This document shows, in pieces, positions 1,411-40,951 of a stretch of DNA of 41,147 bases. Both the position numbers and the translations under genes were made by a program. The stretch spans positions 7,651 through 48,797 of the forward strand of contig DBQW01000039.1 in NCBI GenBank assembly GCA_002305395.1, given 5' to 3'. Below the pieces are notes generated by a model, which searched no databases, was not told the DNA's origin, and saw nothing but the letters and a program-made list of their open reading frames with translations. How positions within the stretch are numbered: position 1 is the stretch's first letter; each line of letters opens with the position of its first letter. This DNA is from Candidatus Berkelbacteria bacterium UBA1384. GTDB taxonomy: Bacteria > Patescibacteriota > UBA1384.

Positions 1411-2094
1411 GTTCTCGCTGCCACTCGAACAGTAATGTGTGCCACGGTCGTTGCCCTTATCGTTCGAGGTGTACCCACCGAGAACTACCTGCCGTTGGAA
1501 CTGCACCTTGCCCGGAGTTCTCGCTGCCGCTCGAACAGTAACAGGCGCCACGGTCATCATTTTTTTATCGTTCGAGAGAACGCGCGTAGTGCCATCTCGA
1601 GAACTACTAGACGCTGATACTGAAACTGGCGTTTTAGCTTGCCCCGCCTTTTTAGGCGGGGTTCTCGCTCCCGCTCGAACAGTAAAGGGGTAGCGGAGAG
1701 TTCTCACTGCGTTCGAACAGTAATGTGTGCCACGGTCGTCGTCCTTATCGTTCGAGGAGCGAAGCGACGAGAACTATCTATCGCTAGTATCAAGCCTCAC
1801 GTGGTAGTTCTCACTTCGTTCGAACAGTAAAGGGGTAGCGGAAAGTTCTCACTGCGTTCGAACAGTAATGGGTGCCACGGTCGTCGCCCTTATCGTTCGA
1901 GGTGTACCCACCGAGAACTACCTGCCGTTGGAACTGCACCTTGCCCGGAGTTCTCGCTTCCGCTCGAACAGTAACAAGATAACGTGATAGTTCTCGCTTC
2001 CGCTCGAACAGTAAAGAGATGACGGAGAGTTCTCGCTGCCGCTCGAACGGTAAAGGGGGTAACGCAATAGTTCTCGCTGCCGCTCGAACAGTAT
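1411..2094 (+). repeat. mosaic hairpin-repeat cluster C1 (10 F-type and 4 R-type units, 1 GC-hairpin H element)
   Basis: F units (GTTCTCGCTKCCGCTCGAACAGTAA and variants) lie at 1411, 1517, 1661, 1700, 1807, 1845, 1950, 1990, 2029 and 2070. Inverse R units (TTATCGTTCGAG..CGAGAAC) lie at 1457, 1565, 1745 and 1890. The cluster sits between divergently transcribed genes. Confidence 0.95.
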
Positions 2095-9214: not shown

Positions 9215-10203
9215 TAGCCTCCTATGTGCAACATTAAACCCTTGTGTCGCCTGCTTAAATTATACACCAATAACTCTATTCCTGCCTCTGGCGCAATAGC
9301 CCCTGTTTTAATGTTGATGTCTGTTTGCGCGATAAACTGATAAGTTTTTGCAAGCCACGACCAACTCAAGTTTTTCGCCAAAGGAGTTAACTTACCCACC
9401 ACAAAAGGCATTATTTTTGCCCGTCGCGCAATTTCCGCATAGGGTGTTTTTGCCTCCAAAAGACCCTTAACATAAACGAGAGCACGATACTGGTAAGCAA
9501 TCGCCCCTAAAACCAAAACGGGCTCACTTTGTGCCCTTAGGGCGGCGAGATGTCCCACCATAACCTTGTCGTTGCCTGCTTTAAGAGCATCGAGTAAGGC
9601 AAAGCTATCCCCTACTACCTTGCGCGGCAGGAAGAGGTCGATATCCCTGCTTGTTACTGTGCGACCAAGGCAGTAAAGACGCAGTTGTTCTAAGATGTTT
9701 TGTAGCTGCCAACCGTTGCCCTCTGTCCCCGCCAACAAAAGCCTTTGCGCTTCGCCCTCTATGTCGATATTATTTTTTGTCACCAGTTCAAGGGCGAACT
9801 TTTCCCAGCTAACCTTCGAGAGTGTTTGTAATTCTATAAAATAAGAAGACTTAAAAAGGAATTTATAAAGCTTTGTTCTTTTGTCGACGTTATTTTTTTC
9901 CAGTATTATCACATTAACCGTTGGCGATTTTTTTTGTATTTTTTTTATAACTACCTCGCTGTCGAGGCCCTTTGTCGTCAAAAGGTTTTTAACGACGAGT
10001 GTCTTTTCTTGCGCAAAAAGGCCAGTAGATAAAAGTTCGTTTATTAAACGCTCTTCCTCGAAATTGTCTTCGCAATCTATAGTAACTACATTTTTTCGCC
10101 CTGCATCGAGGCGCGCAATAACCTCTTCTAACTTCGCCTGGCGGCGAAAATCATCGTTGCCAAAAATGAAATACAAACCATCAATCATAATTTTTTTCTG
10201 CAT
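9214..10203 (-). CDS. holA: DNA polymerase III delta subunit-like protein
   Basis: 329 aa. The size, the N-terminal ..LYFIFGNDDF.. segment and the helical C-terminal domain fit HolA. It overlaps the upstream gene by 23 nt. Confidence 0.6.
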   Translation of the reverse strand: MQKKIMIDGLYFIFGNDDFRRQAKLEEVIARLDAGRKNVVTIDCEDNFEEERLINELLSTGLFAQEKTLVVKNLLTTKGLDSEVVIKKIQKKSPTVNVIILEKNNVDKRTKLYKFLFKSSYFIELQTLSKVSWEKFALELVTKNNIDIEGEAQRLLLAGTEGNGWQLQNILEQLRLYCLGRTVTSRDIDLFLPRKVVGDSFALLDALKAGNDKVMVGHLAALRAQSEPVLVLGAIAYQYRALVYVKGLLEAKTPYAEIARRAKIMPFVVGKLTPLAKNLSWSWLAKTYQFIAQTDINIKTGAIAPEAGIELLVYNLSRRHKGLMLHIGG

Positions 10204-11404
10204 TCCCGCTGGTCATTAGCGCGGCGGCAAGCCACCACAAAATTGCGAGATCGTTTTTGAAAATTGGGGTATCTACTAGCCCATAAAAAAGTATTGCTAA
10301 AAAGAAAACCAAGGGCATAAGAGCTTCTTTTGTAGGCGCGCGAAAATGGGGACGCAAAAGAATAATAACCCACCATACAAAAACTAGAAGTGCAAGCCCA
10401 CCCATACTCGCCCAAATATGCAAAAATAAATTATGGGCAGATAAGGCAAAGGGGGCAATAAATTCGTCGTAATTAACTCTTCCTTTTGTTAGGGTGGTAA
10501 AGTAGTCTTGGTAGTTACCCAACCCCGCGCCGAGCAATGGCTTTTCTTTGATAACCTCAAGCGTTGTGCGCCAGACCTCCCAACGCACGTTGTTACTTGT
10601 AACGACACGCCCCGCATTGGTTGAGGCGTTAAAATCGGGGCGCGCAAAGTAAAAAACAACTACCGCCATAGCTAGCGCGAAGACAGCAAATAAAAATGTT
10701 TTATGCTTAATTTTTCCCCCAAACGGTAGGTGGTAAAAAAGCATATAGGCGCCACCAAGCGCCAGGGACCCCACAAGTGCTACCACTGCCCCTCTACTTT
10801 GCGCGCCCGCAAGAGCGACTGCCATAACAAGTGCCGCCACCACACTAACCACGCGCCATATTTTTTGGTACTTAATAGCTCCTATGACCGCCAGGCTTAC
10901 AATGGGCGCTAAAAACAAGCTTAAATAATTTGCCGAAGCAGATACGTCGAAACCATACCAGCCGAGCCAGCGCCCGTCGTTTGCCCTGTGCCAACCACAA
11001 GCAGAAAACAAACTAACAAGCGCGACTACTCCCCCCGTAAGAATGAGTGTCTTTTTTACAAGAGAATATTGGCGACTTGCCACGACCATAATATAAATAA
11101 GTAAACCATCGACAAAAAAGGCGCGCCAGTAGCCGAGACCGGACAAGACATCGGGGTTTACAAGGGCGCTTATTAAACCCCATACGCTCCAGAGAGCAAT
11201 AATAAGAACGTGGCGCGGAGGAAAAACTGTCCAAGGGTGGGTAATAATTTTTCGAAGCCTGTCTTTGCCGTAGAATAAAAGCCAAGCAAGAAAGCCGAGG
11301 TAAAGAATTATTTCAAATGCGTTCGTAGGAACACCTAAAAGAGAAAAACGAAAGGGGTAAAGAGGTGTAGAAAAAATTATTGCCGATAAAATATATTTTT
11401 CCAT
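10181..11404 (-). CDS. O-antigen ligase/polymerase family (Wzy_C-like) membrane protein
   Basis: 407 aa and polytopic. It carries the ..GAQSRGAVVALVGSLAL.. motif typical of Wzy_C/WaaL-type proteins. Confidence 0.7.
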   Translation of the reverse strand: MEKYILSAIIFSTPLYPFRFSLLGVPTNAFEIILYLGFLAWLLFYGKDRLRKIITHPWTVFPPRHVLIIALWSVWGLISALVNPDVLSGLGYWRAFFVDGLLIYIMVVASRQYSLVKKTLILTGGVVALVSLFSACGWHRANDGRWLGWYGFDVSASANYLSLFLAPIVSLAVIGAIKYQKIWRVVSVVAALVMAVALAGAQSRGAVVALVGSLALGGAYMLFYHLPFGGKIKHKTFLFAVFALAMAVVVFYFARPDFNASTNAGRVVTSNNVRWEVWRTTLEVIKEKPLLGAGLGNYQDYFTTLTKGRVNYDEFIAPFALSAHNLFLHIWASMGGLALLVFVWWVIILLRPHFRAPTKEALMPLVFFLAILFYGLVDTPIFKNDLAILWWLAAALMTSGNAEKNYD

Positions 11405-17673: not shown

Positions 17674-17749
17674 TGGCGTGCCTGGCAGGATTTGAACCTG
17701 CGACCTTCAGCTCCGCAAGCTGACGCTCTATCCACTGAGCTACAGGCAC
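17674..17749 (-). tRNA. tRNA-Arg (anticodon GCG), CCA encoded
   Basis: Hand-folded cloverleaf: GTGCCTG TA GCTC AGTGGATA GAGC G TCAGC TTGCGGA GCTGA AGGTC GCAGG TTCAAAT CCTGC CAGGCAC G CCA. Confidence 0.9.
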
Positions 17750-17865: not shown

Positions 17866-18310
17866 TTACCGTTCGAGGGCTACTGCCCGAGAACTATCAG
17901 ACGTTGATACTACACCTCGCGCTGTAGCTTGCCCCGTCCGATTCTCTGGCGGGGTTCTCGCTTCCGCTCGAACAGTAACAGGTGCCACGGTCGTCGCCCT
18001 TATTGTTCGAGGTGTAATCGCCGAGAACTCCTGACCGGTAATATCAAAACTCACGCAAATAGTTCTCGCTTCCGCTCGAACAGTAACAGGTGCCACGGTC
18101 GTCGCCCTTATTGTTCGAGGTGTAATCGCCGAGAACTACTAGACGCTGATACTAGGACTAGCGTAATAGTTCTCACTGCGTTCGAACGGTAACAGGATTA
18201 TCGTTCGAGGTGTACCCACCGAGAACTACCTGCCGTTGATGTTACACCTGACCCGATAGTTCTCGCTCCCGCTCGAACAGTAACAAGATTATCGCCTCGC
18301 TCGAACAGCA
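17866..18310 (+). repeat. mosaic hairpin-repeat cluster C2 (8 units plus 1 partial, 1 H element)
   Basis: The pattern R-L-H-F-s-R-L-F-s-R-L-F-R-L-F has a period of about 107 nt. It contains two identical 75-nt F-s-R modules (17954-18028 and 18062-18136). Confidence 0.95.
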
Positions 18311-18340: not shown

Positions 18341-19813
18341 TTATTTTATAAGCTCGGATAACGACCAATACACAAAGCCTTTTTTGCTTTTATCTGGCCA
18401 CCACTCTAGGTCTTCTGTGTCGCAAATTAAATAATTTTCTCCTCCGCTGATTTTACAATACGCACTGCGACTTGGTTGTTTAACCTTAGCGCCAGTTTTT
18501 CTATCGATGACATAAAAATCATTGCCACCAGGGTAATCAATCTCGTATCTACGGTGGATACTTAGCGGGCGATCAATCGTATTATAGAGATGCTTGGCAT
18601 CATTGTAACCTTGTTCATCTATCTCGATTATTTTTCCACTGATTAGGTCAATCTCTATGTATTGGTTGTAACCCTCTCTCTGGTTGATTGATACTGGCAC
18701 CTCGACCAGGATTGTATCTTTATCCTTACCGTTTTTAAACTGATCGCGCGAACGCAAGGCGTATGAATCGGTTGGCAAAACCGTGTGGCGGTTGCCGTTA
18801 CTATAGTATACCTGAGAAGGTCGCGGTATCACAACTCTTACCGTGCCCTTTCTCTTGTTATTAAAAACAGTATATTCTTCATGTCCGCCCACCATATTGG
18901 AGGATGCCGTAAAGCGAAATATAAAATAATCACCATAAATTTCTTCCGACACTCCTTTATACGCTTCGTAACTATAAGAGGCTGTACTAATAAAGGTTTT
19001 GGTTTTTTGCTTAAAGTCATAGTAGGCAATGTAATCATTTTCGTCAAAATACCAGATGCCGTCACCAGGAAAAACAATTCTATCCATTAAAGAAAGTGGG
19101 TGCGTAGAAGAGGTTGGGACAAAGGTCCACAGTTTACTATTTGTATAACTTTGATTTTGCCTCTCTAGTATCAGATTGTTTACTGGATTATAGGTTATCG
19201 CCGTTACAAGGGCAGGCAGCACCAGCAAAAGCAACATAACGCCTGCCAATTTTTTACCTGGTGCGGCGGGAATCTGCCTTGCTAAAGACCTTGCTTTTTT
19301 GAAGGCGAAAAATAATAGGATTAAAGAAACAATAACTGCTACCAGTGGTATAAGTATAGCCTCGGGGGGAATACCATAGTCGGCATGTAGCATAAACCAT
19401 ACCCAAAAAGATTCTATTATCGATATACAAATTAAGGAGCTAATTAATATAACAGATAACAACAGCTTGCGAAGGTAGCAAAATAATTCGTTCCTACTAA
19501 CTACAGTGTAGCGCGTTTGTATCAAATAATAAGCTATGGTCACGAGACAGGTAAATACAACGAGCACAATAGCCCCTATTACCGAGACTATCGAAACAAG
19601 TCTTGCAACATACAAGTACGTTAACAACGACACCAGCAAAACAGCCAACACATAACATATCCCTGCGTAAACTGTTCGTATGCGCACCTTATGGGTTGGA
19701 ACTGTTGATGACGATTGTGCTTGCGATGCTAGCGAACCTTCGCCTTGTGCTACATTATGCACAGGTGGTGAAGCTTTTTCCGACATTGCTAACCCCTCTT
19801 CTATTATGCCCAA
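18341..19813 (-). CDS. hypothetical membrane protein (N-terminal multi-TM region, C-terminal beta-rich domain)
   Basis: 490-aa ORF. It has several hydrophobic helices in the first 200 residues and an aromatic/charged C-terminal domain. Confidence 0.75.
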   Translation of the reverse strand: MGIIEEGLAMSEKASPPVHNVAQGEGSLASQAQSSSTVPTHKVRIRTVYAGICYVLAVLLVSLLTYLYVARLVSIVSVIGAIVLVVFTCLVTIAYYLIQTRYTVVSRNELFCYLRKLLLSVILISSLICISIIESFWVWFMLHADYGIPPEAILIPLVAVIVSLILLFFAFKKARSLARQIPAAPGKKLAGVMLLLLVLPALVTAITYNPVNNLILERQNQSYTNSKLWTFVPTSSTHPLSLMDRIVFPGDGIWYFDENDYIAYYDFKQKTKTFISTASYSYEAYKGVSEEIYGDYFIFRFTASSNMVGGHEEYTVFNNKRKGTVRVVIPRPSQVYYSNGNRHTVLPTDSYALRSRDQFKNGKDKDTILVEVPVSINQREGYNQYIEIDLISGKIIEIDEQGYNDAKHLYNTIDRPLSIHRRYEIDYPGGNDFYVIDRKTGAKVKQPSRSAYCKISGGENYLICDTEDLEWWPDKSKKGFVYWSLSELIK

Positions 19814-21865: not shown

Positions 21866-21875
21866 GCACGTATTG

Positions 21876-21906
21876 GGGCTTGGGTCTTACCTAAGCCCTT
21901 TTCTTT
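21876..21906 (+). terminator. rho-independent terminator
   Basis: GGGCTTGGG-tctta-CCTAAGCCC (one G.U pair) is followed by TTTTCTTT, 10 nt after the stop codon. Confidence 0.7.
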
Positions 21907-21946: not shown

Positions 21947-22501
21947 TTACTGTTCGAGCGGGAGCGAGAACTTTCCGTCATATCCATTATTGTTCGAGCG
22001 GAAGCGAGAACTACCGGGTCGGTTTCAATATCAACGCTTAGGAGTTCTCGGTGGGTATACCTCGAACAATAAAAAATGACGGCTGGGAGCTTGCCCCGCC
22101 CGGTCTCGGCGGGGTTCTCTCGAACGATGAAAAAATAACGACCGCTACCTCTTTACTGTTCGAACGTAGTGAGAACTTTTTTACTGTTCGAAGAGCATCC
22201 GCCGCAGGCGGAACGATGAGAACTATCACGTTAGTCCTAGCATCAACGGTAGATAGTTCTCGGGCAGTAGCCCTCGAACGATAAGGACGACGACCGTGGA
22301 CCCATTACCGTTCGAGCGGAAACGAGAACTTTCCGTGACCTCCTTTACCGTTCGAACGTAGTGAGAACTCTTGCACCAGTTCCAATATCAACGTCTAGTA
22401 GTTCTCGGTGGGTACACCTCGAACAATAAAAAAAGACGGCTGGGAGCTTGCTCCGTCCGTCAGTGGGCGGGGTTCTCGTCGCTTCGCGCCTCGAACAATA
22501 A
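21947..22501 (-). repeat. mosaic hairpin-repeat cluster C3 (about 11 units, 2 H elements), inverted orientation
   Basis: The + strand carries TTACTGTTCGAGCGGRAGCGAGAAC (F reverse complement) and GTTCTCGGTGGGTAYACCTCGAACAATAA (R reverse complement). It includes one hairpin-less unit (GTTCTCTCGAACGATGA) and one long-insert unit with CCGCC-gca-GGCGG. Confidence 0.95.
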
Positions 22502-22555: not shown

Positions 22556-22807
22556 CTATTTCCAAAAACCACTAATCAATTTTTCTTTTTTTATTCTTGA
22601 CCATCCTTTAATTTGTTTCTCTCTGCGAATTGCCGCGATCTCGGTTTTAAACTCTTGTTTCCACAAAATTCTTCTTGGTTTATTTTTAAAAGTATGTTTA
22701 GCACCTTGCTTATTGATATGTCGATACAGCCTCGAAGTTGTATTTTTAGTATGCCCAGTGTAATAACTACCATTATCACATAGCAAGATATAGGTATAAT
22801 ATCTCAT
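22556..22807 (-). CDS. GIY-YIG nuclease superfamily small protein (UPF0213/YhbQ-like)
   Basis: 83 aa. MRYYTYILLCDNGSYYTGHTKNTTSRLYRH..GAKHT.. matches the GIY-(x10)-YIG style core (YTYIL..YYTGHT) of stand-alone GIY-YIG proteins. Confidence 0.8.
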   Translation of the reverse strand: MRYYTYILLCDNGSYYTGHTKNTTSRLYRHINKQGAKHTFKNKPRRILWKQEFKTEIAAIRREKQIKGWSRIKKEKLISGFWK

Positions 22808-23857: not shown

Positions 23858-25102
23858 ATGGAATTATCGCCAAAACAACAAGCAGTCGAACTAATTCGTG
23901 CGAGCCACCGTGTTCTTATTGTTGCCCACGAAAACCCCGATGGCGACGCACTGGGAAGCTCCCTTTCTCTTGCCCTTGCTCTTAGCAAGCTTAAAAAAGA
24001 TGTAACCACCGCCATTGCCGGCCCCCTCCCCCCAGTTTATAGTTTTTTACCCAACATCGATATGGTTAATAACGAGGTATCGGGCGCAAAAGAATTTACA
24101 GTAACAGTAGATGTTAAAGATGTCGAAATAGAAAAGTTGGGCTACAAAACAGACGACAAAAAGAAAAAGTTAAGTATTATTATCTCTACCAGTTCTGGTA
24201 ATATCGAACCAAAAAACGTTACCCTTGGCGCAAGCACCACCCCTTATGACCTTATTATCGTTTTAGATTCACCCGATCTAGACAGGCTAAGCACAATTTA
24301 CGACAACAACCCCGACTTGTTTTACGATGTACCGGTTATTAACATCGACCATCACCCCTCTAACGAATACTTTGGTAAAGTAAATTGGATCGATGTAACA
24401 GCCGCGAGCACCTCGGAAATCCTTGTTTCCTTGATAGAGGCACTAAGTGCCCCCAATAAAGGAGAGCCAGCGCAAACACTTATGGACCCCGACATCGCCA
24501 CCCTCCTTTTAACAGGGCTTACAACAGACACAAACAGTTTTCAAAATGCAAATACCACCCCCAAAAGCTTAACCGTTGCGGCGCAGCTGGTGGCAAGCGG
24601 GGCGCGCCAGCAAGAGATAATTCGTAATATTTATAAAACCAAACCCCTTACCACGCTTAAACTATGGGGGCGAGCCTTGAGTAACTTACGCGAAGTTAGT
24701 GAGGCAGGTTTTGTTTTTGCTACCTTGGCAAGTGCCGATTTTGCTGACCTCGGAGCAGAAGAGCAAGAGGCAAGTGGCGTAATCGATGAGCTTATGAAGT
24801 CCACAGGAGGAGTAGATTTTGCCATGCTTATTAGCGAAAGAAATGGTGGTGTTCATGGCTCGTTGCGCTCCATAGACAAGGGGGTCGATGTCTCTACAAT
24901 TGCGCGCATTTTTGGCGGTGGCGGACACGATACTGCAGCTGCTTTCCACCTCGATAACACCACCCTAGAACGCGAGCTAGAAAGAATTATTACCAAAATT
25001 ACTTCTTTCCGCCAACGCAACACCAGCGCCGATGAGCGCCCGGCGGCAATGCCCGCCATTGAAATCGAGAAAAAGAGCCAAAACGGCTCCGATAAATGGT
25101 AG
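23858..25102 (+). CDS. nrnA: DHH/DHHA1 phosphoesterase (NrnA-like oligoribonuclease/pAp phosphatase)
   Basis: It carries ..ILIVAHENPDGDALGS.., ..NIDHHPSN.. and ..GGGGHDTAAAF.. motifs. I prefer the start at 23858 (MELSPKQQ..) because the ATG at 23819 lies inside the predicted -10 box. Confidence 0.8.
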   Translation: MELSPKQQAVELIRASHRVLIVAHENPDGDALGSSLSLALALSKLKKDVTTAIAGPLPPVYSFLPNIDMVNNEVSGAKEFTVTVDVKDVEIEKLGYKTDDKKKKLSIIISTSSGNIEPKNVTLGASTTPYDLIIVLDSPDLDRLSTIYDNNPDLFYDVPVINIDHHPSNEYFGKVNWIDVTAASTSEILVSLIEALSAPNKGEPAQTLMDPDIATLLLTGLTTDTNSFQNANTTPKSLTVAAQLVASGARQQEIIRNIYKTKPLTTLKLWGRALSNLREVSEAGFVFATLASADFADLGAEEQEASGVIDELMKSTGGVDFAMLISERNGGVHGSLRSIDKGVDVSTIARIFGGGGHDTAAAFHLDNTTLERELERIITKITSFRQRNTSADERPAAMPAIEIEKKSQNGSDKW

Positions 25103-25104
25103 GA

Positions 25105-25474
25105 TTATCGTTCGAGGTGTAATCGCCACGGTCGCCATTTTTTATCGTTCGAGGCGCAGAGCGCCGAGAACTTCCGATCGTTGATACTGGAACTCGCGCA
25201 GGAGTTCTCGCTTCCGCTCGAACAGTAAAGGGCATGACGAGTAGTTCTCGCTTCCGCTCGAACAGTAAAGAGGTAGCGGTCGTTATTTTTTCATCGTTCG
25301 AGAGAACCCCGCCGAGACCGGGCGGGGCAAGCTCCCAGCCGTCATTTTTTATTGTTCGAGGTGTAATCGCCGAGAACTCCTAAACGTTGATATTGAAACC
25401 GACCCGGCAGTTCTCGCTTCCGCTCGAACGGTAAAGGGGGTAACGGGGAGTTCTCGCTTCCGCTCGAACGGCAA
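25105..25474 (+). repeat. mosaic hairpin-repeat cluster C4 (about 8 units, 1 H element)
   Basis: It starts 3 nt after the stop at 25102 and ends 8 nt before the convergent stop at 25483. It contains the exact reverse complement of a 105-nt segment of C3. Confidence 0.95.
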
Positions 25475-27239: not shown

Positions 27240-30200
27240 CTATTGTCTAGTAGGTGGTGGTGGTAGATTGTTCCTTGATGGCTGGACAGGAGGTGGGGTC
27301 GGTTTTCTTAGCATTGTCTCCGTTGCTTGCTGCGCTAGTCTTTGCCCTGCTAATTGACCAGCTTGCATTCCTTCTGCCGTCCTCTGAAACGCGGACGCAA
27401 CTGCCTCCATCCTAGTCATTGCCTGGGTGAAATCGGCGCTATTTACGCCTCCTCCTCCTCTTGAGTCTACAGCACTTGCAAGTATTCCTTGTATTTTTTT
27501 ATTTACGTCCATTTCTCTATTATTCCTTATAGCGTCCATAGCGTCCATTTGTTCCGAGGATTTTTTGTCCATGTGCGCACCAAACGCTGCCGCGGTATAA
27601 AGTACAGCCTCTTCGTTTACATCTGCGTCCTTAAACGCATCTCTAATTTCTCGCACTGTTCTGTTGCCAAGCTCCACGGCCTCTGGAGAGGCGGCGCCAG
27701 TCCTACTTAATACCTCTCCTAGTTCTTGTATTCTAATATTCGGTCCACCATAAGTACCCATAGCAGGCATCAAACCTTCCGCCGGGTTATAGCCAGCAAC
27801 TGCCCGCTTTCTTTGCTGAATTTCGTAGGCGGGCTCTCCAGTAGTAAGCATTTCGCTAAACGTGGCACTCGCCCCATAAGAACGACCGGCGGATTTAAGA
27901 AAGTTAGAGGCCATATAGAGCTTAGAAAAATCATCGAGGTTTCCCTTGTAACCAATCTGTCGCGCCATTGGCCACGCCTTGCGCGGCGACTGCTCTATAA
28001 GGCGCGCTATTTGGTCGGGCGATAAGTTGCGGCTTAACCGCCTTACTTCTTGCAACAGCTCGGGGTACTGCCAGTAACGATATTTTTCCGCATATTCACC
28101 CACTACAGTGCTTCCTGCCACCTGCTCGCCTGCGAGCATTTCGAATGCTTTTGTGCCAAGAAACATTTCTCTTCTTAGTTTTTTAAGGTTTGCCTCTCTG
28201 TCTCTTGTTGCATCGAGGGCGTTTTCCCCGATGCTCATTAGATTGCCTAGGCTAAGCCACTTCATTAAGGAGTTTACCACAGCCGAGCCCTTCCCCTCCG
28301 TTTCGCCAGCGGCAATTTTTTTGGCGGCATCTCTGTAGGTTCCCTTGTCGTCTACTCCTTTTTGTGCCGCCAAAAGAGCCCCTGGTGAAGCCATTCTGCC
28401 ACCTTCATCCATAAGCGATTCCCTATACATTTCAACCGCTCTGAGTTCAGCTCTCTTCCTTTCTTCTTCGTTAAGCTCACCAACTACTTTTCCTCCATCT
28501 CTTGCCACCTCTAGCTCTGCCTCTCTTTTGAAGCGGCCGATACCTGTATCTAAATCATACTTTTGGTTTATTTTTGCCACCTCTTCATTGTACCTCTTCT
28601 CTTCCTCGCTAAGAAGCCGCTCTCTATCGACAGGGCTAGTGTTGTTATCACTCTCGATTTTCCCGATTTCCTTTAAATGCCCCCGTTCTGCTTCTTCCTG
28701 TTTTCTCGTATGCTCCGTTTGTTGACCTTCTTTCAGTAAATTGGCAGCGATACGAGCCCTTGCCCTTCCCCCACCCCAGGGCGACCGTGCACCTTGTTCT
28801 ATAATTCTACTTAATACTTGCTCCCTATCTTTTCCACTCTTCACCGCAGCTTGCACTTCTTGTTTCACGCCACCCCTACCGATTAACCGCCACCCCCCTT
28901 CTGCGTACCTCGAGCCCCAGGTGTCAAACCTGCCCATCACCCGGTCTTTTACCTCTTTACCCCTTTGCAGGGCGGAGCCACCGACGGCAAGACCACCAAT
29001 ACCTAACCCCATAAGCGCCTTGGCGCCGTCTTTTGCACCATTGGCAAGAGCAACAGCGTCTTTACCCAGCATAAAAGGAATGCGAATTGCAAACGCAAAA
29101 AGTGCTACACAAACAAAAATAGGGGCCGAGACACCGGCGATCTCCGCAACGGATTGTTTTACTGTTACACCGGGGGTAAGCCACGCAAACATCGCTTTAA
29201 GAATAGTGGCCATAATCTTGCCCACATTGGCAAGACCTATTATTACACTAGCAGCATATAGAATAAGCATTGTAAGTGGCCACATTATTATCCAGTTCAC
29301 AAGGATCTGTAACCATTTATTAAACGCCTTTTGCGTTTGGGGTAGCACCGCGCACATAATCATTGCCGGAGCAAACATTGCAATTGCGCTTACAATAATT
29401 GGTTGAAAGGTTAAAATTAGACCCAATATTGTCATAACAATAAAAAGACCAAGGAAAATTACTCCTATTACAATTGCTATAAGCGGAGCAATGGGAATTA
29501 AAAGAAACAAGGGGGCAATTATTGACATAAGTGACTGGAGCAAGCCATCGATGCCACTAATAATGGCACTATACATAGAGTCAGGAATAACCTGGTTGCT
29601 CATACCATAAACCAAGCCAATAAAAAGCCAACTAGTATTGGCAGCAATAAGCGCCCCAATTAAAAGAGGAAGCATACGCTTAACGGCGTAGGTATTTAGG
29701 TTTAAACGCAGAATATTGGCAAAGGCAACAATAATAAGCACGAGCACCCCTAAAATGTTCGCCAACTGCGTTAGTCCCCGCCAGACCACATACGCCCAGC
29801 CAGACCGCCCCTTAAGGAATTGGTTGATTTCTGGATTATCACGACTTGCGACAATGTTTTTAATATCAAAGGCGTATTCCAGCATTTTCGCCAGAGCATA
29901 GCCAACTTTATCACCAATAAAACAGAAAACCCGACCAAGAAGTGAGCCTACTATCCCCGCTTCTTCCTCGAACTGCTCCCTGCATTTTTTTACAAAAGGG
30001 TCTTCGCTGGCGGCGCTAGCGGCGGGATCCGCCGAAGCGCCACTAGCTGTTGTGCCCGCGCTAGTTGCGGCAGTAGATGAACCGGCAGTAGCGGAAGAAC
30101 CCGGGGAAGAACTAGTTGTGGCGGGAGAGGAGGCAGTAGGCGAAGGGGTGGCAGAGCCAGGGTCACTTGCCACACTTGCACCAGTTGCGCTAGGGATGGG

Positions 30201-30356
30201 CGCATCGCTTGTTGGTAGAGGGTCGGCGCCTACTGTTTTGGGAAATCCACCACCCAAAATAGCAGAAACGCTATAGGTACCACCGAACAAAACAACAACG
30301 GTAATGAGGGAGATTATTATCTTCTTTCCCCTGTTGATTGGCCTATATTTTGCCAA
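27240..30356 (-). CDS. large polytopic membrane protein with a long hydrophilic tail (paralog of 2125..4851; possibly TrbL/VirB6-like)
   Basis: 1038 aa with a TTG start after AAGGAGGG. It has an N-terminal anchor, an S/T/A/P-rich linker, a multi-TM block with ANILRLNLNT, and a roughly 550-aa E/R/K/A-rich tail ending in a P-rich stretch. Confidence 0.6.
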   Translation of the reverse strand: MAKYRPINRGKKIIISLITVVVLFGGTYSVSAILGGGFPKTVGADPLPTSDAPIPSATGASVASDPGSATPSPTASSPATTSSSPGSSATAGSSTAATSAGTTASGASADPAASAASEDPFVKKCREQFEEEAGIVGSLLGRVFCFIGDKVGYALAKMLEYAFDIKNIVASRDNPEINQFLKGRSGWAYVVWRGLTQLANILGVLVLIIVAFANILRLNLNTYAVKRMLPLLIGALIAANTSWLFIGLVYGMSNQVIPDSMYSAIISGIDGLLQSLMSIIAPLFLLIPIAPLIAIVIGVIFLGLFIVMTILGLILTFQPIIVSAIAMFAPAMIMCAVLPQTQKAFNKWLQILVNWIIMWPLTMLILYAASVIIGLANVGKIMATILKAMFAWLTPGVTVKQSVAEIAGVSAPIFVCVALFAFAIRIPFMLGKDAVALANGAKDGAKALMGLGIGGLAVGGSALQRGKEVKDRVMGRFDTWGSRYAEGGWRLIGRGGVKQEVQAAVKSGKDREQVLSRIIEQGARSPWGGGRARARIAANLLKEGQQTEHTRKQEEAERGHLKEIGKIESDNNTSPVDRERLLSEEEKRYNEEVAKINQKYDLDTGIGRFKREAELEVARDGGKVVGELNEEERKRAELRAVEMYRESLMDEGGRMASPGALLAAQKGVDDKGTYRDAAKKIAAGETEGKGSAVVNSLMKWLSLGNLMSIGENALDATRDREANLKKLRREMFLGTKAFEMLAGEQVAGSTVVGEYAEKYRYWQYPELLQEVRRLSRNLSPDQIARLIEQSPRKAWPMARQIGYKGNLDDFSKLYMASNFLKSAGRSYGASATFSEMLTTGEPAYEIQQRKRAVAGYNPAEGLMPAMGTYGGPNIRIQELGEVLSRTGAASPEAVELGNRTVREIRDAFKDADVNEEAVLYTAAAFGAHMDKKSSEQMDAMDAIRNNREMDVNKKIQGILASAVDSRGGGGVNSADFTQAMTRMEAVASAFQRTAEGMQAGQLAGQRLAQQATETMLRKPTPPPVQPSRNNLPPPPTRQ

Positions 30357-30417: not shown

Positions 30418-30438
30418 TGTTACGGTCCATAACATATT
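30418..30438. promoter_or_regulatory. inverted-repeat box TGTTACGGTCCATAACATATT (copy 1 of 3)
   Basis: This 21-nt sequence is identical to 41127-41147, and the core TGTTACGGTCCATA recurs at 40627-40640. It lies 62 nt upstream of the 1038-aa gene start. ATGTTA/TAACAT-type arms flank CGGTCCA. Confidence 0.6.
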
Positions 30439-30512
30439 GTAAAAGTTCATTAACATATTGGACTTTTGAGAATCTATAAATGTATTAATAATGTATCACA
30501 GTAGCGTTTTCT

Positions 30513-30550
30513 GCATTTACTTCGATACTGGGAAGTATCGAAGTAAATGC
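30513..30550. other. perfect 17-bp hairpin with GGGA tetraloop
   Basis: GCATTTACTTCGATACT-GGGA-AGTATCGAAGTAAATGC. There is no flanking T-run on either strand. Confidence 0.8.
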
Positions 30551-30576: not shown

Positions 30577-31101
30577 TTATCGTTCGAGACGCGAAGCGCC
30601 GCAGTCGTCGCTCTTATCGTTCGAGGTGTAATCGCCGAGAACTCTGAACCGTCATTTTATCGTTCGAGGATTATTATCCGAGAACTATCTACCGTTGATG
30701 CTAGGACTAACGTAATAGTTCTCGCTTCCGCTCGAACGGTAAAGGGTGCCGCGTCGTTACTCTTATTGTTCGAGGTGTACCCACCGAGAACTCTGAACCA
30801 TCATCTTATCGTTCGAGGCGTAATCGCCGAGAACTCCCGATTGCTAGTGCTGAAACTGACGTTGTAGCTTGCCCCGCCTTTTTAGGCGGGGTTCTCGCTT
30901 CCGCTCGAACAGTAACAGGTGTGACGGAGAGTTCTCGCTTCCGCTCGAACAGTAAAGGGGGCAACAGTCGCCATTTTTTATTGTTCGAGAGAATTGCGCG
31001 TAGCGCCATCTCGAGAACTACTAGACGCTGATACTGGAACTCGCGCAGAGTTCTCGCTTCCGCTCGAACGGTAAAGAACTCTCACTCCGTTCGAACGGTA
31101 A
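30577..31101 (+). repeat. mosaic hairpin-repeat cluster C5 (about 11 units, 1 H element)
   Basis: It has F and R units plus tandem R-R junctions TCTGAACCRTCAT. It ends 70 nt upstream of the lysK start. Confidence 0.95.
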
Positions 31102-31170: not shown

Positions 31171-32709
31171 ATGAATAAATATTGGGCAAGCCAAATTGCC
31201 GACCAAGTTTTAATAGGTCGCCCCGGCACCATTACTCTTGCCACAGGCATCACTCCTAGTGGTCCATATCATATTGGTCATTTGCGGGAAATGATCATTA
31301 CCGATGCCTTAAACGACGAACTGGCAAGCCGTGGCGTTAAAACCCGCTTTATTTATTTTATAGACGACCTCGATAACCTCAGAAAGTTATATCCCTTTTT
31401 ACCCAAAAGCTTTGCGCGTTACGTTCACTACCCTATTTGCAACATTCCCTCCCCCGAAAAATCGGGCGAAACCTACACGCAATATTTTCTTAAACCCTTT
31501 GAAGAGGCGCTAAAAAAACTGGGGATAAGTGTCGAGTTTCACTATGCCCACCAGTACTACCAACAAGGAAAGATGACCAGCTCCATTACAAAAGCTCTAG
31601 AAAAAAGAGACGAAATTGCAGAGATTCTTTCTCGTATTTCTGGTCGCAAGCTTCCTGAGGATTGGCAACCCTTTGAGCCCCTCGATAAAACAACGGGCAA
31701 AATTCGTGGAGCACGCATATTAGATGTAGATACAAAAAACACTCGCGTCCGCTATTTAAGCGAGAACGGCAAAAAATACTGGGCTGATTATTCCAGGGGA
31801 GAAGGGAAACTACCATGGCGCATCGATTGGCCAGCACGTTGGGCGTTGCTCGATGTCGCCTTTGAGCCTTTTGGCAAAGAACATGCAGCCGCCGGTGGTA
31901 GCTACGACGTCGGCGCGGAAATAGCGCAAAAAATCTATGGCAAAACTGCCCCGGAGTACGTTGTCTATGAGCATGTCTATCTTAAAGGTGAGCAGAAAAA
32001 AATGAGTGCCTCTCTTGGTAACTTAATTTCGCTAGACGAGTTTTTAAACATAGTACCGCCCGCCGTTGCCCGCTATTTTGTTTTACGCTCGCGCAACGAG
32101 CGCCACATTGTTTTTGATCCTGGTGAGGGCTTAATGCAATTAACCGACGAATTTGCGCGCTTGGAACAAAAAGTAACGGAGGGGCAAGCAAGTACTGCCG
32201 AACAAAGCGTGTACCGCCTGTCGCAGGTTACCGACGAAAAAGTTTCTATCGAGGTTCCCTTTAGCCACCTGGTCAACGTGGTACAGGCCGCGCAAGGCAA
32301 TATCGACGAAATTCAACGCCTCCTTAAACGTACAGGTCATGTTGCATCCTTAAAAAGCGATGCCGAACTTAAAGAGCAAGTAAAAAGAGTAAAGTTGTGG
32401 CTTAAAAAATATGCCCCCGAAAATATTAAATTCAAAATTCTTAGCAACCCCCCTTCGCTTACCCTCGAAAACAAAGAGGAAAAAATGTTGCAAGCCGTAG
32501 CGCATACAGTAGAGCATGGCCTTGTCGGCATTGATTTACACAATGCTATTTACGAGGCGGGACGCGCAGAGGGCCTTAAGCCAAGAGAGACATTTGCTTT
32601 GATTTACAAAATATTTCTTGGAAAAGATTCAGGACCAAAAGCAGGCTTCTTTTTAAGTATGCTCGAAAAAGACTTTGTCTTGCAACGGCTAAGGCATTAT
32701 ACAAAATAA
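31171..32709 (+). CDS. lysK: lysyl-tRNA synthetase, class I
   Basis: 512 aa with a HIGH-type motif (..PSGPYHIGHLRE..) and a KMSKS-type motif (..KKMSASLGN..). The length and layout fit class I LysRS rather than class II. Confidence 0.85.
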   Translation: MNKYWASQIADQVLIGRPGTITLATGITPSGPYHIGHLREMIITDALNDELASRGVKTRFIYFIDDLDNLRKLYPFLPKSFARYVHYPICNIPSPEKSGETYTQYFLKPFEEALKKLGISVEFHYAHQYYQQGKMTSSITKALEKRDEIAEILSRISGRKLPEDWQPFEPLDKTTGKIRGARILDVDTKNTRVRYLSENGKKYWADYSRGEGKLPWRIDWPARWALLDVAFEPFGKEHAAAGGSYDVGAEIAQKIYGKTAPEYVVYEHVYLKGEQKKMSASLGNLISLDEFLNIVPPAVARYFVLRSRNERHIVFDPGEGLMQLTDEFARLEQKVTEGQASTAEQSVYRLSQVTDEKVSIEVPFSHLVNVVQAAQGNIDEIQRLLKRTGHVASLKSDAELKEQVKRVKLWLKKYAPENIKFKILSNPPSLTLENKEEKMLQAVAHTVEHGLVGIDLHNAIYEAGRAEGLKPRETFALIYKIFLGKDSGPKAGFFLSMLEKDFVLQRLRHYTK

Positions 32710-32746
32710 ATTGTTTATTAGCCTTTGCTCCGTTATTGTATTTGGC

Positions 32747-33401
32747 TACTATTCGAGCGGAAGCGAGAACTTTTTTACTGTTCGAGCGGAAGCGAGAACT
32801 ATCACGTTAGTCCTGATATCAGCGTCTGATAGTTCTCGGTGAGTACACCTCGAACAATAAAAAATAACGACCGTTGCCCCCCCTTTACTGTTCGAGCGGA
32901 AGCGAGAACTTTTTACTGTTCGAAGAGTATCCGCCATAGGCGGAACGATGAGAACTATTTACGTGGGATTTGATACTAGCGGTCGATAGTTCTCGTCGCT
33001 TTGCTCCTCGAACGATAAAATGACGGTTCAGAGTTCTCGGGTAGTAACCCTCGAACAGTAAAAACCTACGGTCAGGAGCTTGCCCCGCCCCACCGGGCGG
33101 GGTTCTCGGATAGTAATCCTCGAACAATAAAAAATGATGACCGTCGCCCCCTTTACTGTTCGAGCGGAAGCGAGAACTAATGCGACAGTTCCAGTACTAG
33201 TGATCGGGAGTTCTCGGTGGGTACACCTCGAACAATAAAAAATGATGACCGTCGCCCCCTTTACCGTTCGAGCGGGAGCGAGAACTGCCTCGTCATTTTC
33301 AGTATCAACGCTAGTAGTTCTCGAGATGGCACTTCGTGCGTTCTCTCGAACGATAAGGGTAACGACCGCGGCACCTGTTACTGTTCGAGCGAAGTGAGAA
33401 C
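32747..33401 (-). repeat. mosaic hairpin-repeat cluster C6 (about 15 units, 1 H element), inverted orientation
   Basis: It begins 38 nt after the lysK stop. R-type inner stems here include GGTG/CACC, GGGT/ACCC and GGAT/ATCC. Confidence 0.95.
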
Positions 33402-37129: not shown

Positions 37130-37156
37130 TCCCCTGCGCTTATGGGGATTTTTTAT
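37130..37156 (+). terminator. weak rho-independent terminator after tRNA-Glu
   Basis: TCCCC-(9-nt loop)-GGGGA is followed by TTTTTTATT. The stem is short. Confidence 0.4.
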
Positions 37157-37363
37157 TATTATTCGAATGGAGTGAGAGTTTTTTACCGTTCGAACGAAGT
37201 GAGAACTATCGGGTAAGGATTAGCACCAACGGTAGATAGTTCTCGGTGGGTACACCTCGAACAATAAAAAGTGGCGGCTGAGAGCTTGCCCCGTCCGAAT
37301 CTCCGGCGAGGCTTGCCCCGCCTTTTTAGGCGGGGTTCTCTGGTAGTAACCCTCGAACAATAA
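37155..37363 (-). repeat. mosaic hairpin-repeat cluster C7 (4 units, 2 tandem H elements), inverted orientation
   Basis: It ends 10 nt before the stop of the GT2 gene at 37373. Confidence 0.9.
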
Positions 37364-40592: not shown

Positions 40593-40641
40593 ATGGTACT
40601 ACTATCATTACCTACTGTCAAGAACGTGTTACGGTCCATAC
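40593..40641 (-). promoter_or_regulatory. promoter TTGACA-N17-TACCAT preceded by the IR box (copy 2)
   Basis: On the minus strand the order is TATGGACCGTAACA-N5-TTGACA-N17-TACCAT. The box-to-(-35) spacing matches the sRNA promoter at 41093-41147. Confidence 0.55.
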
Positions 40642-40681
40642 AAAAGAAGAGCAAACTCCTCGTTACATTCTTTACCGTTCG

Positions 40682-40951
40682 AGCGGGAGCGAGAACTCCC
40701 CGTTACCCCCTTTACCGTTCGAGCGGGAGCGAGAACTACCTCGTGAGGTTTGATGCTAACGTTTAATAGTTCTCGAGATGGCGCTACGCGCAATTCTCTC
40801 GAACGATAATCCTGTTACTGTTCGAGCGGGAGCGAGAACTATAGCGCGAGGTGTAGTGCTGGCGGTTGGGAGTTCTCGAGATGGCACTACGTGCGGTCTC
40901 TCGAACGATAAAAGGACAGCTGGGTCTCGGGCAGTAGCCCTCGAACAGTAA
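40682..40951 (-). repeat. mosaic hairpin-repeat cluster C8 (6 units), inverted orientation
   Basis: It has three F reverse-complement units (TTTACCGTTCGAGCGGGAGCGAGAAC). It also has two long-insert R units (GTTCTCGAGATGGC(G/A)CTACG(C/T)GC..TCTCTCGAACGATAA) and one GGGC/GCCC R unit. Confidence 0.95.

Follow-up and report, generated by a model that had tools for sequence, protein, structure and literature searches.

The stretch of DNA analysed here, called the window, comprises 41,147 nt of a contig from Candidatus Berkelbacteria bacterium UBA1384 and carries dense clusters of a short repeat unit, in which a small hairpin is framed by the invariant hexamers GTTCTC and TCGAAC. The inner stems of these hairpins covary strongly while the hairpin foot and an adjoining TC/TC mismatch stay fixed, a pattern confirmed across the wider set of related DNA described below. 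The units are best explained, with a confidence slightly above even, as a lineage-restricted family of extragenic hairpins resembling the repetitive extragenic palindromes (REPs) and bacterial interspersed mosaic elements (BIMEs) of other bacteria; they would most likely act at the DNA level and be read at their invariant foot by a putative structure-specific protein. Little repetitive DNA is expected in the very small, gene-dense genomes of Patescibacteria, so hairpin mosaics that occupy about 9% of a 41-kb stretch, and recur at about 1.6 units per kb over about 1 Mb, need explaining.

A framed repeat kept out of genes

A scan of the whole window for the frame GTTCTC-N(0-25)-TCGAAC returned 68 exact matches, compared with 0.02 expected from 100 dinucleotide shuffles. 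This bears out the recurring framed unit described in an earlier note, which had been made from the sequence alone. When frame and tail are parsed together, the window holds 69 exact units (37 on the plus strand, 32 on the minus strand) and two with one frame mismatch; the family is real, and the count is 71 rather than the roughly 78 first proposed. Inserts between the frames measure 8 nt in 28 units, 7 nt in eight, 12 nt in 20, 13 nt in four, 23 or 24 nt in five and 26 nt in two, and two units have none. All units fall into eight clusters that cover about 3.7 kb, the same number and share of the window as the earlier note had given; by the gene calls of this analysis, these clusters occupy eight of ten gaps exceeding 100 bp, where the note had counted 8 of 12. 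The only intragenic frame-like matches in the window, at 24192 and 25926, each carry a mismatch and lack the RRTAA tail.

The wider data set of 959 kb (0.96 Mb) consists of the window and 135 related loci from several strains, and is not one complete genome. It contains 1,512 clean units in 244 clusters, at 1.6 units per kb. The clusters have a median of five units and at most 19, and only 16 of them are singlets. Open reading frames (ORFs) of at least 150 aa cover 73% of this DNA, yet contain only 96 of 1,492 units, and about 40 of these 96 were inspected: every one lies in a spurious ORF running through a cluster or in an over-extended gene start. Units are excluded from credible genes, which is the opposite of the equal frequency in coding sequence that the earlier note had named as grounds for doubt.

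The same note had raised the possibility of assembly artefacts. Among orthologous clusters taken from independent assemblies with 100% identical flanks, 25 of 26 are identical base for base. The clusters are therefore confirmed as a real and reproducible feature of these genomes, not a product of assembly.

Unit anatomy and covariation

Each unit begins with a leader of about 15 nt (...ACG...A), followed by the invariant GTTCTC, an insert of 0-26 nt, the invariant TCGAAC and RRTAA. The core of frames, insert and tail spans 17-48 nt, and the whole unit with its leader about 40 nt. Classes were defined by insert length. Class A has the tail RGTAA and inserts of 8 nt (490 units), 7 nt (265) or 26 nt (44); class B has the tail RATAA and inserts of 12 nt (378), 13 nt (143) or 23/24 nt (154); a further 31 units in the 0.96 Mb have no insert. 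The leader with its conserved ACG stands upstream of every GTTCTC, an A directly precedes GTTCTC in 86% of the 1,512 units, and the closing TAA is present in 1,419 of them. Since the frames had served to find the units, their conservation was measured separately over 15 scored positions (12 of the frame plus TAA): 1,393 units match throughout, 179 deviate at one position, and two mismatches occur in about 100 beyond the number expected by chance.

The foot of the hairpin is GTTC paired with GAAC, and the next two positions are always TC opposite TC, which on the other strand is GA opposite GA. This 2x2 TC/TC module recurs within the 13-nt and 26-nt inserts. The complementary strand of the class A unit at 1950-1974 illustrates the design: in its sequence, TTACT-GTTC-GA-GC-GGAA-GC-GA-GAAC, a 4-bp foot is followed by a tandem G.A internal loop and then by a 2-bp stem that closes on a GNNA loop. 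The loops of the hairpins measure 3-4 nt, and on the GTTCGA strand they have the form G..A in 245/265, 475/490, 97/143, 82/86 and 66/68 units of five classes. According to work attributed to Hirao and to Chou and Reid, a Y-GA-R context reportedly favours sheared tandem G.A pairs, and GNA or GNNA loops closed by C-G are said to form DNA mini-hairpins of exceptional stability, d(GCGAAGC) being one example; the 13-nt insert class contains this very sequence, GCGAAGC.

Covariation is clearest in the 12-nt inserts, of which 51 are distinct. Pair 3:10 is Watson-Crick in 39 of these (shuffle mean 14.1, maximum 24) and pair 4:9 in 43 (shuffle mean 20.1, maximum 32), with four pair types at both variable stem pairs. 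A formal count gives 94.6% paired versus 81.7% after shuffling, and at most 48% in slid controls. Double-sided cells number 48 against 15.9 in shuffles, and the covariation score is 0.298 against 0.081, a level reached by none of 500 shuffles. In the 7-nt insert class, too, the stem switches between A-T and G-C. The idea that the hairpin covaries within a fixed frame, first put forward from the window, is thus upheld.

Arrangement of units and linkers

The clusters follow a strict grammar. Adjoining A and B units are inverted in 798 pairs and share an orientation in only five, among about 1,200 neighbour pairs, so the alternation of two oppositely oriented classes seen in the window holds generally. 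Head-to-head A/B pairs are the commonest arrangement (n = 448) and mostly lie 32 nt apart, tail-to-tail A/B pairs (n = 350) lie 21-22 or 5 nt apart, and tandem pairs (A-A, n = 241; B-B, n = 133) about 15 nt apart. A single polarity prevails in 232 of the 244 clusters. These fixed spacings and polarities support the BIME-like architecture that had been suggested, and make it stricter than the window could reveal.

The 32-nt head-to-head linker is two leaders back to back. Its length is fixed and its sequence is not: the 448 linkers comprise 290 distinct sequences, with a mean pairwise identity of 0.57. The lengths first reported for the linkers (21-22, 31-33 and about 15 nt) stand, while the notion of a small linker vocabulary does not. 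Conserved CGT.AG and AaCGgT cores are found in the linkers, whose variable runs do not exceed 7 nt; for 61% of the 32-nt linkers, another locus holds a relative with at most three mismatches. Some unit heads carry a third hairpin module, GCTTGCCCCGCC-N5-6-GGCGGGG, listed once in Table 1 and found again at about 30866-30890 and 37310-37334; it accounts for a 56-nt variant of the head-to-head linker.

Old positions, fast-changing interiors

Of the syntenic gaps compared, 46 hold a cluster in both genomes, two hold one in a single genome, and 208 have none in either. Below 99% amino-acid identity, unit number differs in all 22 pairs; at or above 99%, it agrees in 20 of 24. Likewise, all ten pairs with flanks less than 99% identical differ in unit content, with the edge units usually kept. 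A 172-nt block shared by clusters 3 and 4 (Table 1) indicates recent exchange or copying between them, and blocks shared between clusters begin and stop at various points. Based on these syntenic counts, unit-number differences and shared blocks, cluster positions, which are conserved across two species, are old and vertically inherited, whereas duplication, deletion and exchange of multi-unit blocks quickly renew the interior. Expansion and contraction take place mainly within fixed clusters. The comparison of syntenic strains proposed in the earlier note therefore returned conserved positions with variable content. One filled-versus-empty site is present (L002 versus L029), with flanks too diverged to define the insertion ends.

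Other sequence variation was seen in the same loci. At L002 1341-1430, a 24-nt sequence is present in three tandem copies within one unit. L062 (5200-9573) has flanks 99% identical to those of the window gene 18341-19813 and carries three tandem paralogues (50-58% identical) of this gene, which encodes a 490-aa membrane protein and is single-copy in the window. A 1,038-aa orphan gene (27240-30356) includes a variable stretch with an indel (window 28359-28691 versus L086 2046-2367), in strains that are otherwise 94-97% identical there.

Table 1. Repeat clusters and representative parts in the window, and insertion sites of an IS110-family element in related loci (L numbers)
Feature	Position	Strand	Description
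Cluster 1	1411-2094		14 units; class A on +, class B on -; divergent gap between a - strand gene starting near 1326 and a + strand gene at 2125
Cluster 2	17866-18310		8 units; between tRNA-Arg and gene 18341-19813, both - strand
Cluster 3	21947-22501		11 units; class A on -; downstream of terminator-like hairpin 21875-21899; adjoins 83-aa GIY-YIG gene
Cluster 4	25105-25474		7 units and a truncated unit at left edge; fills convergent gap from 3 nt past one stop codon to 9 nt short of the other
Cluster 5	30577-31101		9 units and degenerate edge units; divergent gap upstream of class I lysyl-tRNA synthetase gene
Cluster 6	32746-33401		13 units, one with a frame mismatch; between two + strand genes
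Cluster 7	37155-37363		3 units; convergent gap, directly after tRNA-Glu terminator-like hairpin
Cluster 8	40672-40951		6 units, one with a frame mismatch
Typical class A unit	1950-1974	+	GTTCTC-GCTTCCGC-TCGAAC-AGTAA
Typical class B unit	1890-1918	-	GTTCTC-GGTG-GGTA-CACC-TCGAAC-GATAA; 4-bp covarying inner stem
Head-to-head linker (B to A unit)	1919-1949		Two unit leaders of ~16 nt back to back; 31 nt here, usually 32
Tail-to-tail linker (A to B unit)	1869-1889		21 nt, core GCCACGGTCGTCG
Long-insert class B unit	1565-1604	-	23-nt insert; past the frame GAGA/TCTC, internal loop, GCAC/GCGC (imperfect here; GCAC/GTGC stem in the commonest form), TAC loop
Long-insert class A unit	22181-22223	-	26-nt insert; second nested TC/TC internal loop; TCCGCC/GGCGGA stem
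Accessory G+C-rich hairpin module	1637-1661	+	GCTTGCCCCGCC-TTTTTA-GGCGGGG, fused to unit head
Multi-unit segment	21992-22163		In cluster 3; 172 nt, 96.5% identical to 25258-25429 (cluster 4)
IS110-family element	L082 1083-2333		Junctions 1082/1083 and 2333/2334
IS110-family element	L038 8504 to contig end		Junction 8503/8504
IS110-family element	L058 1-615		

Host lineage and range

The window is bacterial, with genes for DNA polymerase III delta, RNase J, ribosomal proteins S15 and S20, glycosyltransferases and DUF2207 proteins. An abundance of orphan proteins, a class I lysyl-tRNA synthetase (31171-32709) and a tRNA-Arg with the anticodon GCG (17674-17749) fit Patescibacteria, also known as the candidate phyla radiation (CPR); the last two are unusual in bacteria. 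An exact scan for the commonest unit found it in one of 185,579 species-representative genomes, Patescibacteria group bacterium Go_SlDig_bin_412, at 15 loci, and in at least 120 stretches of digester and activated-sludge metagenome contigs. It is absent from 2.9 million viral contigs and unmatched in 50,697 phage records and 72,556 plasmid records. Identities of orthologous proteins among the loci peak at 95-100% and at 80-92%, which implies that at least two species carry the family.

A sister genus, whose contigs include ERZ27247363 k141_2523160 (742 kb), has an RNase J 70-71% identical and shares the local arrangement of genes, but 34 kb (22 + 12 kb) of its corresponding region is free of units; a repeat scan of the 22-kb locus turned up no comparable family of another kind either. 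This absence marks the family as a lineage-specific expansion, and the scan of related DNA called for in the earlier note shows it to be confined to a narrow Patescibacteria lineage. In Rfam, only three tRNAs of the window reach threshold, and the clusters remain unmatched even at E up to 1. The unit sequence is likewise unmatched in full-text papers and in the literature on Patescibacteria repeats. With the comparison to described repeats thus carried out, the family is apparently undescribed.

One locus stands apart in composition. L133 (contig Ga0209514_10000594) has 57% G+C, compared with about 45% in the repeat-bearing lineage, and carries a phage-type (tyrosine) integrase, the only one among the proteins searched with Pfam, and two or three isolated units (9820-9844, 11143-11198); horizontal transfer, a different host or a chimeric contig are possible.

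A proposed reading at the hairpin foot

One mechanism may account for these features. When the strand is unpaired, or the duplex is extruded as a cruciform, GTTC would pair with GAAC to form the hairpin foot. The always-mismatched TC/TC would then act as a fixed 2x2 internal loop, with tandem G.A on the other strand, and make the hairpin asymmetric. The insert would form a distal stem-loop that need only pair, leaving it free to covary. A trans-acting, structure-specific protein could read the invariant foot together with the flanking A and TAA, which would explain why frames are near-perfect while linkers of fixed length drift. That frames stay near-perfect across two species as linkers drift suggests selection or drive on every copy, and so a reader protein. 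Reshuffling inside clusters may proceed by recombination between identical frames.

Several observations weigh against this explanation. No reader protein was identified among the proteins examined in the 0.96 Mb, and the most abundant B class, with 12-nt inserts, has a G..A loop on the GTTCGA strand in 0 of 378 units. Nearest-neighbour DNA folding of single units yields -2.4 to -5.3 kcal/mol, not significantly better than shuffles, so the case for folding rests on covariation and motif rules rather than on energy. Templated repair inside palindromes could also produce covariation without selection. At least clusters 4 and 6, each placed between a stop codon and a terminator-like site, may be transcribed and so be read as RNA.

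A tentative alternative, clearly less probable than the explanation just given, is a RAYT-independent system in which a lineage-specific protein would recognise, on DNA that is single-stranded or extruded as a cruciform, a code made of the frame and a hairpin of any sequence. The code would consist of the GTTC/GAAC foot, the tandem G.A internal loop and the TAA tail. Such a protein might copy the units, or the roughly 1,500 sites in each genome might serve it to arrange or control the chromosome of an ultra-small bacterium.

Closest known parallels

The closest known kind is the REP/BIME elements of E. coli and other Enterobacteriaceae. Both are short, imperfect, intergenic palindromes of high copy number; units of two types alternate in orientation, and the linkers between them have set lengths. 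In both, a conserved mismatch makes the palindrome asymmetric, a short conserved tag stands beside the hairpin, clusters vary between strains, and IS110-family elements use the repeat as a target. By size (about 20-40 nt for a REP), extragenic location, copy number (hundreds for REPs, 1,512 units in 0.96 Mb here) and mosaic rule, the present units match REPs and BIMEs.

The differences are also considerable. REP palindromes carry a conserved GTAG or CGTC tag at one end (PMC3733652), whereas the tag here is TTAY (RTAA on the other strand; RRTAA/TTAYY in full), so that the REP tag is lacking. Conservation is limited to the 4+2-nt foot; neither the sequence nor the length (0-26 nt) of the distal stem is constant, and its changes are compensatory. 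The density of about 1.6 units per kb, or 9% of the window, is several times above that of E. coli. Promoter gaps and gene 3' ends hold clusters equally often, the host belongs to a small-genome Patescibacteria lineage, and no RAYT gene was found in the 0.96 Mb with a narrow profile, by motif or by eye. Membership in the REP/RAYT family proper is not claimed here, given the different tag and the lack of a detected RAYT.

A 1,251-bp element of the IS110 family (Pfam DEDD_Tnp_IS110 and Transposase_20) is inserted in two different B units at TCGA^AC (Table 1). The same frame position in two units indicates that the repeat unit is a specific target of this element. IS110-family elements such as IS621 target REPs in E. 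coli, and the insertions at TCGA^AC are a further functional parallel with REPs. Other transposase genes adjoin clusters at L035:990-2102, L114:1918-3171 and L111:989-1918; one is of the rve type, one of the IS256/Mutator type, and one codes for a zinc-ribbon protein that has a DDE-like core but matches nothing in Pfam.

Possible mobilisation by a transposase

It is rather unlikely that the units are non-autonomous elements like REPINs, the REP doublets of Pseudomonas, mobilised by a single-copy Y1 HUH transposase (RAYT or IS200/IS605 TnpA-like) encoded outside the sampled DNA. Such an enzyme would cleave the GTTCGA strand at the conserved TTAY, immediately 5' of the hairpin, and copy head-to-head doublets to new sites. 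A conserved mismatch next to a conserved tetranucleotide follows the substrate logic of RAYT, which recognises GTAG plus a REP, and of IS608 TnpA, which recognises TTAC (PMC3733652, PMC3479197). The commonest arrangement, a doublet with the 11-nt terminal inverted repeat TTAYYGTTCGA...TCGAACRRTAA, fits this scheme, as do near-identical linkers at different loci and the filled-versus-empty site in L002 and L029. Sampling is also incomplete, the 120 matching metagenome stretches being a lower bound. Like REPINs, the units occur most commonly as inverted doublets with a short spacer, and are inherited vertically at conserved positions within one lineage.

Searches for such a transposase gave no convincing candidate. 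A RayT profile built from 120 homologues, all from Enterobacteriaceae and therefore narrow, matched nothing in 7,362 six-frame segments of the 0.96 Mb, where all hits had E above 0.4. A strict HUH...Y motif search of the same DNA returned no candidates. A relaxed search returned two, forming one orthologous pair, with the motif just 11 residues from the N-terminus; Pfam finds nothing in the candidate at L081:2210-2602. Reading 104 families of small basic ORFs by eye disclosed no RAYT or HUH transposase. The absence of a RAYT/IS200-type gene, first remarked for the window, thus extends to the 0.96 Mb by profile, motif and ORF reading. Moreover, RAYT genes are normally flanked by their own REPs, so the scan should have captured one, and new sites are rare (2 of the 48 syntenic gaps that carry a cluster).

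The arrangement itself differs from that of REPINs. The doublet halves belong to different classes, with inserts of 7-8 and 12-13 nt, and so do not form a single long perfect hairpin. Units mostly stand in arrays of 3-19 rather than as dispersed doublets. In REPINs the inverted doublet replicates and singlets are its decaying remnants. Here doublets prevail, but the ends of shared blocks fall at various points and singlets make up only 16 of the 244 clusters.

The search for other partners was equally negative. Pfam analysis of 50 proteins identified only IS110, rve and IS256 transposases and housekeeping genes, and PDB sequence searches with five orphans gave only unrelated genes. A GIY-YIG gene, which the earlier note had listed among candidates for a co-varying partner, lies beside cluster 3 (22556-22807, minus strand) and encodes a stand-alone protein of 83 aa that is single-copy in the data set. 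It is ruled out because similar genes of 86-87 aa occur in sister-genus loci without units (L138 and L140), and it is not specific to the repeats. Close to the lysyl-tRNA synthetase gene, the same two sister-genus loci also code for proteins of about 500 aa that include an HU/IHF-type DNA-binding domain (L138 18782-20290, L140 6435-7928).

DNA or RNA

The element is more likely to be read as DNA than as RNA, because cluster polarity is unrelated to gene direction and clusters occur both in divergent promoter gaps and after terminators. The gaps that hold clusters are tandem in 43 cases, divergent in 23 and convergent in six, and in tandem contexts polarity relative to the flanking genes is split 23 to 20. 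An intrinsic terminator precedes cluster 3, cluster 7 and the cluster in L002. Replication direction does not set polarity either, since GC skew has the same sign over nearly the whole window and cluster polarity is split four to four. Scans with promoter and terminator consensus sequences revealed no consistent relation to the clusters. The structured single-stranded DNA or RNA element of the earlier note, recognised through its frame, is thereby retained and refined toward DNA, with RNA less likely.

A role as RNA in untranslated regions, as protection from RNase J or PNPase, as terminators or as processing sites, has a low probability, comparable to that of a mobilising transposase. GGAA, GGGA and GAAA are GNRA tetraloops, and tandem G.A pairs are frequent in RNA. 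E. coli REPs stabilise upstream mRNA, and genes for both RNase J and PNPase are present here; the position of clusters 4 and 6 also suits this role. Against it stand the unbiased orientation, the roughly one third of contexts that are divergent promoter gaps, the three clusters downstream of terminators and the lack of any Rfam match. In addition, GNA triloops are typical of DNA rather than RNA.

Two further sequence features lie in upstream regions. A 34-nt perfect palindrome, ATTTACTTCGATACT-N4-AGTATCGAAGTAAAT, is found at 30515-30548 in the window, at about 1967-2000 in L002 and at about 12183-12216 in L029; it is conserved before genes in two species and looks like an operator for a dimeric regulator. 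The motif TGTTACGGTCCATA occurs in two upstream regions of the window about 10 kb apart (30419-30444 and 40627-40640).

Other structured repeats

Arrays of tandem interspaced guide RNA (TIGR) that serve a Nop-domain Tas protein are a very improbable explanation, even though they occur in the same phylum. In CPR bacteria these stem-loop arrays have variable palindromic stems and a few conserved adjacent nucleotides, and each unit needs a pair of hypervariable 8-12-nt spacers, both set between box C and box D in the loop of the stem, with a Nop-domain gene alongside (PMC12045711; bioRxiv 10.64898/2026.09.09.750476). With tandem hairpin units of about 40 nt, the present family bears a superficial resemblance to these arrays, whose unit is 36 nt. 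The present units have no dual spacers and no box C/D pattern; their loops are 3-4 nt, and the linkers combine conserved cores with variable runs of at most 7 nt. The 244 clusters are dispersed over all loci instead of lying beside an effector gene, and no Nop-domain protein is present among the window proteins or the loci proteins examined.

Integron attC sites would share structure-based recognition, with short conserved boxes at the foot of a single-strand hairpin, a variable centre of variable length and conserved unpaired features that set polarity. They are 57-141 nt long, however, carry RYYYAAC...GTTRRRY boxes, and occur once per gene cassette with IntI nearby. The present frames, GTTCTC...TCGAAC with GTT outermost, belong to tandem units of 17-48 nt without cassettes, and the window proteins include no integrase by Pfam, so identity with attC is rejected. 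Miniature inverted-repeat transposable elements of the Correia or IS630 type are about 100-400 bp, with terminal inverted repeats of at least 10 bp and a TA duplication; single units fall well below this length, only 866 of 1,512 heads are preceded by TA, and no matching transposase ends were found. CRISPR arrays, in which identical direct repeats alternate with unique spacers of similar length, are rejected on the grounds that units occur in both orientations within a cluster and that linkers are related to one another.

Assemblers often break at clusters, as in a 3.5-kb Logan contig ending at clusters 7 and 8, yet short-read metagenome assembly artefacts or simple oligonucleotide bias can hardly account for a family with a strict grammar, kept out of genes, agreeing between independent assemblies, and joined by mostly unique linkers that allow long k-mers to resolve the clusters.

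Biological meaning

If the family truly lacks a RAYT, BIME-like architecture can arise and persist by another route, a conclusion that bears on how REPs themselves are maintained. If a RAYT-independent code is at work, the units would form a new class of structure-specified genomic element rather than a relative of REPs. Clusters are fixed in place and differ in content between strains at about 1-4% flank divergence, making them very sensitive strain markers for these uncultivated organisms. Moreover, many clusters lie in promoter gaps by genes for surface polysaccharides and membrane proteins, where they could be a source of expression variation.

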